A stretch of DNA of 39,848 bases, taken from NCBI GenBank assembly GCA_964424045.1, contig CAYRHV010000002.1, positions 1 through 39,848 on the forward strand, written 5' to 3'. A program made the position numbers and the translations under genes. Every line of letters starts with the position of its first letter. Position 1 is the first letter of the stretch. The DNA comes from an uncultured Ottowia sp. Its GTDB lineage: Bacteria; Pseudomonadota; Gammaproteobacteria; Burkholderiales; Burkholderiaceae_C. This document shows positions 18,087 to 22,537 of this stretch, piece by piece. The notes under the pieces are model-generated. The model did no database searches. It had not been told where the DNA came from and saw only the letters and a list, made by a program, of their open reading frames with translations.

Positions 18087-20429
18087 TTAGCCTCGTGCGC
18101 GCCGCAGCCGCAGCGCGTTGAAGATGACAGAGGCCGAGCTCAGGCTCATGGCCAGTGCTGCAATCAATGGAGACAGCAACCAGCCCGTGATGGGATAAAG
18201 CACGCCGGCGGCGATGGGCACGCCGATACCGTTGTAAACGAAGGCGAACAACAGGTTCTGGCGCATGTTGCGCACGGTGTCGATGGAGATGTCGCGCGCG
18301 GCTGCGATGCCGCGCAGATCGCCCTTGACCAGGGTGATTTGGCCGCTGTTCATGGCCACGTCGGTGCCGGTGCCCATAGCGATGCCCACGTCGGCCTTGG
18401 CCAGGGCAGGTGCGTCGTTGATGCCGTCGCCGGCCATGGCGACGACGTGCCCCTCCTTCTGCAGCCGCTCCACCAAGGCCAGTTTGTCGGCCGGCTTGAC
18501 TTCGCCATGCACTTCGTCGATGCGGAGCTTGGCGCCCACCGCCCGGGCCGTGGTCAGGCCGTCGCCCGTCGCCATGACGATGCGCAGGCCACTGTCGTGC
18601 AGCGTCTTGATGGCGTCGGCCGTGGTGGCCTTGATCGGGTCGGTGACGGCCAGGATGCCTGCCAGCCGCCCGTCCACGGCCAGGTGCATCACGCTGCCAC
18701 CCTCGCTGCGCAGGCGCTCTGCGTCCGCCTTGAGCGCATCGGTGGCCACGTTCTCCTGCTGCATCAAGGCGGTGTTGCCCAGCACCAGATGCTTGCCTTC
18801 GACCGTGCCGCGCACGCCGATGCCGCTGCCCGATTCGAAGTCGTCGGCCTTGGTCAGGCTCAGCCCTTTGTCCCGCGCGGCGCGGACGATGGCATCCGCC
18901 AGCGGGTGCTCGCTGCCCTGATCCAGACTGGCCGCCAGGCGCAGCACCTCATCCGGCGTGTAGCCCGGGTCGGCGACGGCGGTGTCGAAGGCCGGCTTGC
19001 CTTCGGTCAGGGTGCCGGTCTTGTCCACGATCAGCGTATCCACTTCGCGCATTTTTTCGATGGCGCCGGCATCGCGGAACAGAATCCCCTGCGTTGCCGC
19101 GCGGCCGGTGGCGACCATCACGGACATCGGGGTCGCCAGGCCCAGCGCGCAAGGGCAGGCAATGATCAGCACCGCCACGGCGTTGATCAGGCCGAACACC
19201 CAGCTCGGCTCGGGGCCGAAGAATCCCCAGACGAAGAAGGTCGCGATTGCGATCAGCACCACCACGACCACGAACTTGCCGGCCACCACGTCGGCCATGC
19301 GCTGCATCGGCGCCTTGGAGCGCTGGGCATTGGCCACCATCTGCACGATCTGCGACAGCATGGTGGCGGCGCCGACCTTCTCCGAGCGCATCACCAGTGC
19401 GCCGCTGGTGTTCATCGTGGCGCCAATCAGGCCGTCGCCGGCGCGCTTGGTCACCGGCACGGGCTCGCCGGTGAGCATGGATTCATCGACGGCACTGCTG
19501 CCCTCGGTCACCACGCCATCGACGGGCACTTTCTCGCCGGGCCGCACGCGCAGCAGGTCGCCGACGTGAACATGGTTCAAAGGCACGTCCTCCTCGCTGC
19601 CGTCGGCATTGATGCGGCGCGCCGTCTTGGGGGCCAGGCCCAGCAGAGCCTTGATGGCCGCCGAAGTCTGCGAGCGCGCCTTCAATTCGATGATCTGACC
19701 CAGCATGGTCAGCGAGATGATGACGACCGCCGCCTCGAAATAGACGGCGACGCGGCCGTGGGCGATGAACGAGTCTGGAAACACGCCGGGCGCGAGGGTG
19801 GCGACCACGCTGTAGACAAAGGCGGCGCCGGTGCCCAGGCCGATCAGCGTCCACATATTGGGGCTGCGGTTGACGATGGACTGCCAGCAGCGGACGAAAA
19901 ATGGCCACCCCGTCCACAACACCACCGGCAGCGACAGCACCAGCTCGACCCAGGTCTGGGTCTTCATGTCGAACCAGCCGAGGCGGTGGCCGAACATCGC
20001 CAGGATGGTGACCACCACGGTCAGCGGCAGGGTCCACCAGAAGCGGCGCTGAAAATCGATCAGTTCGCTGTTGTCCTCCTCATCCAGCGGAATCACCGGT
20101 TCGAGCGACATGCCGCATTTCGGGCAATTGCCGGGATGATCCTGCTGCACTTCCGGGTGCATGGGGCAGGTGTAGATGGTCCCCGCCGGGACCTCCATGG
20201 GCGCCGCTGCAGAAGCTGCCGGGGTCTGTTCGCCAGCGGCATGGCCGTGGTGATAGTGGCCATGTGCCGCTTCGCCCTCGGGCACCAGGTGCATCTGGCA
20301 CTTGGGGCAGCGACCCGGTTGCTTCTGCCGCACTTCTGAATGCATGGGGCAGACATAGAACATGTCGGAATGCGCACCACCCAAGGCAGCCGAATCTCCC
20401 TTGCCGTGCTGATGTATGTGATTGCTCAT
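18087..20429 (-). CDS. copF: Cu(I)/Ag(I)-translocating P1B-1 ATPase (CopF/SilP-like)
   Basis: Two YxCPMH...PGxCPKCxMxL domains, [28 protein letters not shown] and MSLSS. Confidence 0.93.
20217..20254. repeat. 38-bp direct repeat shared with the DUF3141 5' end (copy 1)
   Basis: TGCCGGGGTCTGTTCGCCAGCGGCATGGCCGTGGTGAT, identical at 22375-22412. Confidence 0.95.
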
Positions 20430-20456
20430 GTCAATGTCCTTGTGGAGTTTGGCTCG

Positions 20457-20488
20457 ACCCTTGACCTGTTCAGCATGGCAAGGTCGAG
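20457..20488 (-). promoter_or_regulatory. CueR/MerR-type promoter-operator of the Cu ATPase
   Basis: Minus strand TCGACC-19 bp-AAGGGT with dyad ACCTTGCCA-TGC-TGAACAGGT. Confidence 0.7.
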
Positions 20489-20565
20489 GCTGTTTTTATT
20501 GGACGAATCTGGCTTGTTCTACTTTTTGTATGCTTGCCCGGCGGCTGCACGCGACGGCTAAACCG

Positions 20566-22428
20566 TCAAGGCGTAACGCTGATGCCGTTGGGCGTCTTAC
20601 CCACCGGAACGGTTTTCACGACCTGATCGTCTTTCACATCGAGCACAGAAACTGAATTGGGGCGCCCTAGATTGCCATCACCGACCTTTTTTCCCATCAT
20701 GCTCAGAACGCTTGAGAACAAGTCAGGGTTTTGAAACATCAGGCGAAACGCCTGCTCCCTCGCAGCGTCGCGGCCTTCGCGCAGTTGTCCCATCGCATGG
20801 GTTACTTCCCCTACGGCTTCACGCTCCCGCTTGATGAACGGGTGGTTCTGCGCAAGCGGTTGGCGGTTCTTGCTAAGCGACTCGGCCAGCAAGGCAACGC
20901 CGCGCATCCATGGACTGAACGCTTCAGAGAGCAAATAACGGCTGGTGCGCATCGGATGGAGCCACTTGAGCATTTCGGCTGTCCAGGGCGTGGCCAGCGC
21001 TTGCGCCCAAGGACTGACGAATGCCCGGTAAAGTGCTTCGTTGACCGTCGAGACTTGTTTCACTCGCTCAAAAGCTTCCTGCGGGTAATCCGTTTTCAGG
21101 TCTTGCACCTGACGGGGTTCGAAGCGGATGCTGTAGCTGGGTTTATGGCAGTCCGGGTCACCCGACGGATTGTCGATCTTCATTTCATAGAGGCCCGGGG
21201 CCAGCGCTTCAATGTCAGCCAGGCTCTCCAGGATGGCCCGGTGCTCTAAACGAGCCACCCTGGCAGAGACAAAAATGCCGAGATGGCCGACATGCGGGTT
21301 TGTGAGGTAGACGATGCGCTGCCCGGCTTGCCTGAGATTCTCTGTGTCGCTGTAGACAGCGGGGATCCATCCAAGCGCCTGGTGCGGTGGCGTGATGTTG
21401 TCGCCGTAGGATGCAAAGATGACGATTGGATTCGTGATCCGCCTCAGGTCAGCAGTGCAACCCTGGCAAATCCGGAAAAGACCTTGTTCAATCTGATTGC
21501 CGATGAACAGGTTCTCAACGATCGCGAGAATCTCTTCTCGGCTCAGGAAATAAAAACCGTTCCACCAGCGTTCGAACTCCAGAAAGCGTTCCTGCTCGCT
21601 GTCAACGTTGGTGAAGAGTTGGGCGTACTTTTCCCAAACGGCCTTTTCGGGCTTGAGGTTCTCGAAATTCTGCGCCAGCCAGGCCCCGTCGAAGCGGCCA
21701 TTGCCCAGGTCGGCCGTCAGATGCGCCAACCAGCTGCCGCCAAGGAGCCCTCCGGAAAGACGCATCGGATTGACACCGGACTCACCGGCCCAATACGACA
21801 AGGGTGAGCCATTGAGCACCACCGGCCCGGCCAGACCGGCGCAGTCTGCGGACAGTAGCGTCACCGCCCACCCAGCCTGACAGTTGCCATAGAGCACAGG
21901 AGGCTTGCCAGGATGGCGTAGTGCGACCTCTTCGACGAAGCTCCGCAGCACATGCAACACGTCTGCCAGGGTCTGCCCCAGAGTCGGCTCCGGAAAGAAG
22001 ATGACGAAATAAACCGGATGGCCTTCGCGCATGGCCATTCCAACTTCAGAGTCGCGCTTGAAACCGCCAATCCCAGGGCCATGGCCGGCGCGTGGATCTA
22101 CGACGATGACCGGCGGTTTGTCAGGGTCGACGCAGTCGTCCCAGCAATGCTCGTCGATTTCGGTGATGCGCAGCAGTGCATAGTTGACTGGCCGCTCGAA
22201 GCGGCGCGCGTCCAGCAGCGTTTCGTGCTTGAAATCCAGAAGCGGCGGCAACCCGGCTCGCTCGTGCTCAAGCATGTTGTTCGCGCGCTGGCGAAGCGTG
22301 TCCCAGAAAAGTACCGTGCGTTCGAGGAAGTCCCGCTGGTAGTCGAAAAAGTCCAGCGCCGACAGTGCCTGAGTTGCCGGGGTCTGTTCGCCAGCGGCAT
22401 GGCCGTGGTGATGCAGGTGATGGTTCAT
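20566..22428 (-). CDS. DUF3141-family PHA-synthase-like alpha/beta hydrolase with chimeric ends
   Basis: DPRAGHGPGIGGFK, GNCQAGW (Cys nucleophile box), SYGDNITPP (Asp), GHLGIFVS (His); start MNHHLHHHGH inferred from alignment with the ATPase start. Confidence 0.8.
   Translation of the reverse strand: MNHHLHHHGHAAGEQTPATQALSALDFFDYQRDFLERTVLFWDTLRQRANNMLEHERAGLPPLLDFKHETLLDARRFERPVNYALLRITEIDEHCWDDCVDPDKPPVIVVDPRAGHGPGIGGFKRDSEVGMAMREGHPVYFVIFFPEPTLGQTLADVLHVLRSFVEEVALRHPGKPPVLYGNCQAGWAVTLLSADCAGLAGPVVLNGSPLSYWAGESGVNPMRLSGGLLGGSWLAHLTADLGNGRFDGAWLAQNFENLKPEKAVWEKYAQLFTNVDSEQERFLEFERWWNGFYFLSREEILAIVENLFIGNQIEQGLFRICQGCTADLRRITNPIVIFASYGDNITPPHQALGWIPAVYSDTENLRQAGQRIVYLTNPHVGHLGIFVSARVARLEHRAILESLADIEALAPGLYEMKIDNPSGDPDCHKPSYSIRFEPRQVQDLKTDYPQEAFERVKQVSTVNEALYRAFVSPWAQALATPWTAEMLKWLHPMRTSRYLLSEAFSPWMRGVALLAESLSKNRQPLAQNHPFIKREREAVGEVTHAMGQLREGRDAAREQAFRLMFQNPDLFSSVLSMMGKKVGDGNLGRPNSVSVLDVKDDQVVKTVPVGKTPNGISVTP
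22375..22412. repeat. 38-bp direct repeat (copy 2)
   Basis: Identical to 20217-20254; encodes [12 protein letters not shown] in both proteins. Confidence 0.95.
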
Positions 22429-22454
22429 GCCCATGCCTTTGTGGAGTTGACTCG

Positions 22455-22486
22455 ATTCTTTACCCTGCCATCGTGGCAAGGTAAAG
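22455..22486 (-). promoter_or_regulatory. CueR/MerR-type promoter-operator upstream of DUF3141
   Basis: Minus strand TTTACC-19 bp-AAGAAT with near-perfect dyad CTTTACCTTGCCA-CGA-TGGCAGGGTAAAG. Confidence 0.72.
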
Positions 22487-22537
22487 CCTTTTTCCTTGTG
22501 GACGCATCAAGCCCCGCACTGGTCCATGCCCCGATGG

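Follow-up and report, generated by a model that had tools for sequence, protein, structure and literature searches.

How does a gene for an enzyme resembling a polyester synthase come to stand directly behind what looks like a copper-responsive promoter, in frame with the first codons of a copper pump? The question is raised by a DUF3141 gene on the minus strand of a 39,848-nucleotide stretch from an uncultured Ottowia sp. (the window; contig CAYRHV010000002.1 of assembly GCA_964424045.1), where it precedes the gene for a P1B-type copper ATPase. We consider it reasonably probable that this gene is a mosaic allele of a DUF3141 subfamily of copper islands, in which a 2,158-bp cassette lies behind the ATPase's own promoter and first 18 codons, so that the predicted PhaC-like enzyme probably responds to Cu(I) by way of the host's CueR and probably shares a transcript with the pump. 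This reading builds on the anatomy of the gene, on alleles with an empty site, on a PhaC-like fold and catalytic triad, and on the copper neighbourhood and extra cysteines of the subclade. Because this cysteine-rich subfamily is found mostly beside copper-resistance genes, the fused enzyme is likely to be copper-induced, possibly copper-binding, and no one-off accident. Features are placed in Table 1; G, L, P and X precede the numbers of genomes, loci, proteins and runs.

Counted from its ATG at 22428, the fused protein has 620 aa; it matches PF11339 at 685.9 bits (gathering threshold 29.7) over profile positions 1-544 of 582. Its variable 60-aa native N-terminus has been replaced, at a 6-bp microhomology, by a His-rich leader, which the initial annotation took for the ATPase N-terminus minus its first CPMH metal domain and which comparison with G007 identifies instead as a natural short-leader allele. 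At the other end, residues 591-620, missed in that annotation, correspond to the C-terminus encoded by a YVTN beta-propeller gene (26/30 identical), with about 1 kb lost between the DUF3141 end and this tail at a 4-5 bp microhomology. This YVTN segment reads as a remnant: a single partial repeat scores 25.1 bits, below the family's 27.85. A sequence search of the PDB with the single fused protein matched this tail only. The cassette comprises the DUF3141 core, the 30-aa YVTN remnant, a second promoter (P2) and a second ATPase 5' end, the last with about 71-73% DNA identity to the long-leader alleles of L031 and L020, and it is bounded by two copies of an exact 38-bp direct repeat, R. This repeat, which had been noticed at the outset, gives both proteins the same 12 aa, and its local alignment score of 107 lies far outside 300 shuffles (mean 33.5, maximum 58.3).

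The empty site is seen in G007, where the cytochrome c gene, the upstream promoter (P1) and the same leader lead directly into the ATPase. A cassette-free joined contig is likewise present in runs X8, X10 and X19, and in one isolate a locus with the cassette coexists with one that lacks it and whose P1 allele differs. From the G007 site and this isolate it follows that the window holds that same locus plus the 2,158 bp between the two R copies. Excision at R was considered as the source of the X8/X10 joint that skips these 2,158 bp, and is ruled out by 22 differences in 235 bases on the P1 side, so that the joint belongs to a separate cassette-free locus.

Over 108 bp the two start regions (22508-22402 and 20509-20403) share 73% of their bases, far beyond shuffled sequence. 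The alignment reported earlier thus stands, and the recent copying read from it does not, since this level of identity reflects the old homology of two ATPase alleles. P1 contains a 12-bp dyad (arms 22485-22474 and 22470-22459) with a single mismatch at 22465; the perfect arm occurs in L028, X8, X10 and X23, and the window's mismatch allele recurs in X19. Relative to G007 (22459-22485; L017 and L028 compared), changes at mirror positions of both arms keep the palindrome, the -35 goes from TTGACC to TTTACC, and the window has the extra substitution at 22465. P1 is the top match in the genome to a CueR matrix (41.9 bits, with close homologues included in the training set). P2 scores 20.7, at the low end of the training range of 18-49 and under two chromosomal sites of the cueR/copA region (30), yet within the top 7 of 6.2 million positions. 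The dyad initially ascribed to both promoters is found in P1; P2 shares the left arm alone, its right arm (AACAGGT) being degenerate with a 4/7 match. Among the other cassette carriers P2 is 98.8-100% identical.

As far as the available parts of the sources go, the P1 dyad within a 19-bp spacer resembles the CueR/CopR copA promoter of Rubrivivax gelatinosus (PMC11591864) and the CueR promoters of P. aeruginosa (PMC12833586), and 20/21 bases, compared by eye, are the same as in the R. gelatinosus copA probe used for electrophoretic mobility shift (PMC11591864). Unlike those promoters, P1 serves the PhaC-like gene first and the pump second, has TTTACC at -35, and has one arm base changed. The dyad within the 19-bp spacer between -35 and -10 is joined by a CueR encoded in the host genome (G000:C82; TIGR02044, 171 bits against a cut-off of 147.4), and on these sequence features the fused gene is quite probably copper-inducible. 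No terminator-like site was seen between the DUF3141 stop and the ATPase in a sigma-70/terminator scan; sigma-70 promoter counts were at chance level in a scan that does not cover 19-bp spacers.

What enzyme would such a promoter control? The predicted fold is that of an alpha/beta hydrolase, and the Cys-Asp-His triad, which had been called intact, is so by motif, conservation and secondary-structure position: C183 (21882), D343 (21402) and H382 (21285) are invariant. A structure model (pLDDT 89.9) finds PhaC structures as its top fold matches (Z 22.6-24.9; root-mean-square deviation 3.3-4.1 Å over 300-321 residues), lipases following at Z ≤21; a profile search of the PDB reached PhaC weakly (E 5e-4). 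The fused protein shares its predicted fold and its triad with the polyhydroxyalkanoate (PHA) synthases of A. caviae (9KNL), Chromobacterium (5XAV) and C. necator (5T6O/5HZ2), from which it differs in its 14-18% identity, its scores below the class I/III cut-offs and the lack of a PhaC_N match. No phaE match was found among the 44 open reading frames of the window that were scanned; the host genome also encodes a class I PhaC. In the available part of the literature, DUF3141 is likened to PhaC and placed next to pha, pta, ackA and fabI genes; Pseudomonas pha islands are one such setting (bioRxiv 2025.03.12.642780). The fused enzyme is likely to be catalytically active; that it makes polyester is possible but somewhat doubtful.

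The family itself divides in two. In a tree of 125 DUF3141 cores (11 loci having been dropped beforehand: eight chimeras that were redundant or partial, and three copies with a truncation or frameshift), a long branch with FastTree support 1.0 parts a short group, most of whose members have about 600 aa (54-99% identity), from a long group (39-48%, 656-1052 aa). Strict copper markers, namely a copper-type P1B ATPase (CPC, CPH or CPD form), multicopper oxidase, CusA, CusF, CopB, cupredoxin or CueR, were sought by tblastn within about 9-10 kb, excluding a 33% partial ATPase match in L180. They lie near 71/92 short loci and 0/32 long loci, and, where each flank extends for 8 kb or more, near 54/63 short loci as against 0/24 long ones. 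DUF2933, ICMT, DUF5676, YHS and DUF411 had been removed as markers, which brought a loose count of 79/93 down to this strict one. Because most short loci were chosen by similarity, even draws were added: copper markers accompany 6/7 short and 0/27 long loci in an even phylum draw, and 9/10 short and 0/30 long loci in a held-out set. In the latter the one miss is a 2.9-kb contig, L200 duplicates L055, L206 and L207 share a contig, and the long controls are all 16 new ones of one draw and 14 from the upper part of about 74 in another. Eight annotated plasmid regions, selected from the short group, all hold copper genes. As the short group forms a single clade, its loci cannot be counted as independent events; it spans alpha-, beta- and gamma-proteobacteria alongside copper genes.

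Like the long forms (PF11339; found in pta-ackA-fabI or pha clusters), the short clade has the same domain and invariant triad, frequent ackA and fabI neighbours, and an enrichment of FNR-type boxes. Unlike them, it resides in copper islands, possesses six additional cysteines and lacks a C-terminal extension of about 160-300 aa; the window allele differs further in lacking adjoining ackA/fabI and in its borrowed leader and tail. The closest unfused alleles sit about 20 bp 3' of a Cu-ATPase, at the end of a gene run divergent from cusRS, and donor-type ATPase-DUF3141-YVTN operons with a full-length DUF3141 at that spacing occur in L016, L031-L034, L037 and L038. Since unfused relatives stand in such operons and the subclade resides in copper islands, the copper link is, on these gene orders, older than the fusion, contrary to the initial proposal that promoter capture created it.

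The extra cysteines follow the same division. Among 93 short proteins, 78-100% have C95, C99, C196, C321, C324 and C427, as against 0/32 long ones, and H236 and H379 are distributed in the same way; C196 and C324 are kept even in basal short members, and in the held-out set were found in 10/10 short and 0/30 long proteins. Inspected by eye, the native N-termini show no obvious hydrophobic signal peptide, which makes a metal site more plausible than disulfides. Whether these residues bind Cu(I) is, from their sequence distribution, almost an even call, falling just on the doubtful side. Extra cysteines in the neighbouring AckA and FabI lend modest support (two AckA columns at 0.81 vs 0, one FabI column at 0.93 vs 0.04, overall Cys content being similar).

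Other short-clade loci show variations of their own. P1B ATPases of L048, L057, L093, L189 and L190 have CPD in place of the CPC/CPH membrane motif. L190 (7054-8835) encodes, between fabI and DUF3141 and behind a P1B ATPase, an acetate kinase of 593 aa whose C-terminal extension presumably resembles PduL phosphotransacylase. Two short-clade copies lie 9 kb apart in one copper cluster, each beside fabI (L206/L207, G1384:C47), and P0101 is a thiolase-DUF3141 fusion.

A number of observations weigh against a copper-induced enzyme at this locus. The cassette is rare (1/399 family genomes), L111 is frameshifted and the tail of L112 is broken; ackA and fabI are absent from the window, with homologues in the host bin only on contigs C3 and C199; and the PhaC cut-offs are far off (TIGR01836, 24.1 against 365.3; TIGR01838 not listed at E 0.001). 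The differences between carriers cluster and may have been imported by recombination, and their low pN/pS, the ratio of non-synonymous to synonymous polymorphism (0-0.14), is no proof of selection after the fusion. In the subclade, 9/63 full-flank short loci have no strict copper marker, and the copper association is possibly one event in a single clade. CueR boxes up to 5 kb upstream occur in 4/77 unfused short loci against 3.4 expected, which is no enrichment; exact FNR boxes over the same distance occur in 18/77 short loci against 1.6 expected and in 7/28 long forms against 0.2 (expectations from a dinucleotide-shuffle control that replaced a mononucleotide one).

The rarity, the broken copies and the missing partners would suit a neutral passenger, that is, a recombination accident that is expressed but useless without its partners and is carried along by the spread of its mobile element; three illegitimate joints with junk ends, and the commonness of cassette-free loci, which coexist with the cassette in one isolate, point the same way. 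We nonetheless find this unlikely, as neither fusion breaks the reading frame or cuts into the domain, and recombination has put the cassette behind four or more P1 alleles even though R should permit its clean loss. Synonymous changes also outnumber non-synonymous ones (5:0, 7:3, 15:5, 6:1), and P0001-P0004 carry the His leader on DUF3141 alleles with a native C-terminus, albeit in single-contig records that may be recombinants or mis-assemblies. A measurable gain in copper tolerance from the fused gene is, for its part, an unlikely outcome.

The box counts argue against a general CueR link across the subclade, and they raise the alternative that the short clade belongs to an FNR/FixK-controlled module (ackA, fabI, ppk2, an AMP-phosphorylase-like gene, DUF2933, ICMT) that merely shares mobile islands with copper genes, its cysteines being redox or structural and the CueR wiring of the window locus incidental. 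Beyond the FNR enrichment, ackA lies near 32/92 and fabI near 30/92 short loci, and many short-clade neighbours match FixK2 targets of B. diazoefficiens, for which the available part of PMC9104804 tabulates DUF2933, ICMT, MBL (metallo-beta-lactamase) hydrolase, thymidine phosphorylase, acetate kinase, oleate hydratase, CBS and metK. We rate this account rather unlikely: long forms have FNR boxes and ackA/fabI, yet copper markers near 0/62; the copper association survives removal of DUF2933 and ICMT as markers; and the closest unfused alleles stand directly behind an ATPase, with no exact FNR box upstream.

In the survey of homologues suggested initially, the CueR boxes were at chance and the HHH leader was present in 6/184 short-clade proteins, every one a chimera. 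Matches to extracytoplasmic function (ECF) sigma factors, nearly all Cys-tailed, lie near 22/92 short loci and 0/32 long ones. Those with Cys-rich tails stand 1-3.4 kb upstream of DUF3141 on the same strand in L077-L088, L093, L101, L151 and L189. In their tails these sigmas, near many short-clade genes of other taxa, resemble the CorE type as described in the available part of PMC8999054, a copper regulon of that kind being possible by analogy; the window locus, unlike that arrangement, has no such sigma. Across the subclade we read the upstream sequences as a repeated wiring to copper sensors laid over an older low-oxygen control. Cu(I) is most toxic at low oxygen, which makes the two kinds of control compatible.

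To return to the mosaic itself, insertion with duplication of R is the best fit to the history of the locus. Part of an ATPase-DUF3141-YVTN operon, which microhomology deletions had shortened beforehand, would have been joined to the cytochrome c-P1-ATPase locus by two crossovers, one illegitimate, at the leader, and one homologous, in the His linker, with R duplicated as a result; recombination would later have moved the cassette between P1 alleles; alignments of the alleles make this joining and later movement probable. The same end product and regulation could have arisen by deletion, an ancestor with the order P1-ATPase1-DUF3141-YVTN-P2-ATPase2 having lost the ATPase1 body. Native DUF3141 does follow an ATPase, a second cytochrome c-promoter-ATPase unit comes after YVTN in L032-L034 and L038, and both joints have microhomology. 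We regard this route as improbable: the two-ATPase intermediate was not found among the loci examined, and the window's ATPase body is 96-98% identical to the cassette-free short-leader gene of G007 despite its diverged long-leader 5' end, which insertion explains directly. The view that a DUF3141 gene already in place received a copy of the neighbouring ATPase's promoter and leader, creating the copper link, would account for the 38-bp identity and the similar start regions, but is very improbable in that P1 is 87% identical to the G007 ATPase promoter in the same position and 73% to P2, unfused relatives are already in copper operons, and the empty-site alleles contradict it. The capture first proposed is borne out to the extent that the allele has a CueR-type promoter and His leader absent from its unfused relatives; its direction is the reverse, a cassette placed behind the ATPase's own 5' end.

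An assembly artefact, conceivable for a bin of 603 contigs and 80% completeness (G000), can practically be dismissed, since the cassette recurs at 97-100% identity (L028-L030, L108, L110, and the parts held by L109, L112 and L113, the end of low-coverage L111 being the exception) behind several P1 alleles (P1 plus leader only 74-99% identical), with the same 5' junction in 3 of the best 80 GTDB loci, in G592, which likewise has both R copies, and in 6 metagenome contigs, and as a single contig in runs X8, X9, X10, X19 and X23. Contigs with the cassette also occur in RNA runs X3, X8, X9, X10 and X14, which may include DNA; the junction pattern gave 0 matches in viral contigs.

Table 1. Positions of the features discussed, in window coordinates.
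Feature	Position	Strand	Basis or remark
PFGI-1-type backbone genes (AcaB, STY4528 family, DUF2857, ParB, ParA)	2519..9258	-	Profile matches
P1B-type copper ATPase, 780 aa	18087..20429	-	TIGR01511, 580.9 bits vs cut-off 397; CPC motif
Repeat R, right copy, 38 bp	20217..20254	-	Exact repeat
5' end of long-leader ATPase allele with first CPMH (HMBD) domain, cassette part	20255..20429	-	Absent from G007
P2, degenerate CueR-type promoter	20457..20487	-	-35 TCGACC; 19-bp spacer; -10 AAGGGT
Remnant of sequence 3' of YVTN gene	20510..20565	-	Aligns with L016, L032 past YVTN stop
In-frame 30-aa tail and stop from YVTN beta-propeller gene	20566..20658	-	87% identical to YVTN gene end of L016
DUF3141 core, aa 19-590, PhaC-like alpha/beta hydrolase	20659..22374	-	PF11339, E 6e-206
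5' fusion junction, 6-bp microhomology between ATPase leader and native DUF3141 allele	22372..22377	-	Comparison with G007, L033
Repeat R, left copy, 38 bp	22375..22412	-	Exact repeat; own 38-nt contig in run X23, depth about 2x neighbours
Start codon and 18-codon His-rich leader	22375..22428	-	Native 5' end of short-leader Cu-ATPase; G007 leader continues straight into ATPase
P1, CueR-type promoter	22455..22485	-	-35 TTTACC 22485-22480; 19-bp spacer; -10 AAGAAT 22460-22455
Cytochrome c gene, native upstream neighbour of P1	22538..23041	-	Pfam PF13442; cytochrome c-P1-ATPase order also in G007, G003

The genes of the window are cargo of a PFGI-1-type integrative and conjugative element, whose backbone (AcaB, STY4528 family, DUF2857, ParB, ParA) was recognized by profile search. 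On the minus strand the order is copA, copB, cupredoxin, cusF, a hypothetical gene, DUF2933, ICMT, cytochrome c, DUF3141, Cu-ATPase, two small genes and cusCBA, with cusRS divergent from this copper run. By its TIGR01511 score and CPC motif the DUF3141 gene's neighbour is a P1B-1 copper ATPase. The ATPase, cusA and copA have a GC content at third codon positions of about 0.86, the DUF3141 gene one of 0.69. The window ATPase is without 54 nt (18 aa) of N-terminal linker (about 20378) found in carriers L028, L030 and L194, and metal domains number 1 to 3 among alleles, that of L018 (G003; 9700-10420) having three tandem His-linker and CPMH units. Elsewhere, a 22-bp palindrome, probably a regulator binding site, occurs three times in the backbone (1516-1537, 3423-3444, 3511-3532), two copies being 88 bp apart beside acaB; a 186-nt inverted repeat (76%; 17848-18033 and 34899-35084) marks a second copy of a small 85-aa membrane gene and adjoins an IS3-type integrase core; and 31627-33387 and 35143-39663 hold a second TAT-type (twin-arginine translocation) multicopper oxidase and a block of EamA, P1B ATPase, RcnR/FrmR-like repressor and LysR genes.

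The fusion alone is ordinary mobile-element mosaicism. The subfamily behind it is apparently undescribed, as is the link between copper and polyester that the initial annotation had thought new: searches of the open-access literature showed no copper link for DUF3141. Functionally, the enzyme would be a cytoplasmic acyl-thioester transferase with a Cys nucleophile, a polyester synthase or its reverse, from a DUF3141-pta-ackA-fabI module redeployed to copper and low-oxygen stress, its cysteines perhaps binding Cu(I). The boldest extension, which we offer tentatively and think rather improbable, is that copper islands of proteobacteria carry a dedicated copper-gated polyester enzyme with a PhaC fold and Cu(I)-binding subclade cysteines, controlled by three sensors according to lineage (CueR at this locus, CusRS among its close relatives, Cys-tailed ECF sigmas elsewhere) and moving acyl-CoA into or out of polyester for ATP supply or metal buffering when copper poisons respiration. 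If that were true, polyester metabolism would be a standard arm of copper resistance. The pumps, oxidases and chaperones of copper islands have been catalogued well, their metabolic passengers have not, and a PhaC-fold enzyme that tracks copper with its own set of cysteines offers a test of whether polyester or acyl-CoA metabolism belongs to copper defence. The copper-island subfamily is in this way a route to the function of DUF3141, and the fused allele, which has a CueR-type promoter, a His tail of natural origin and isogenic empty sites that occur in nature, may serve as the handle.

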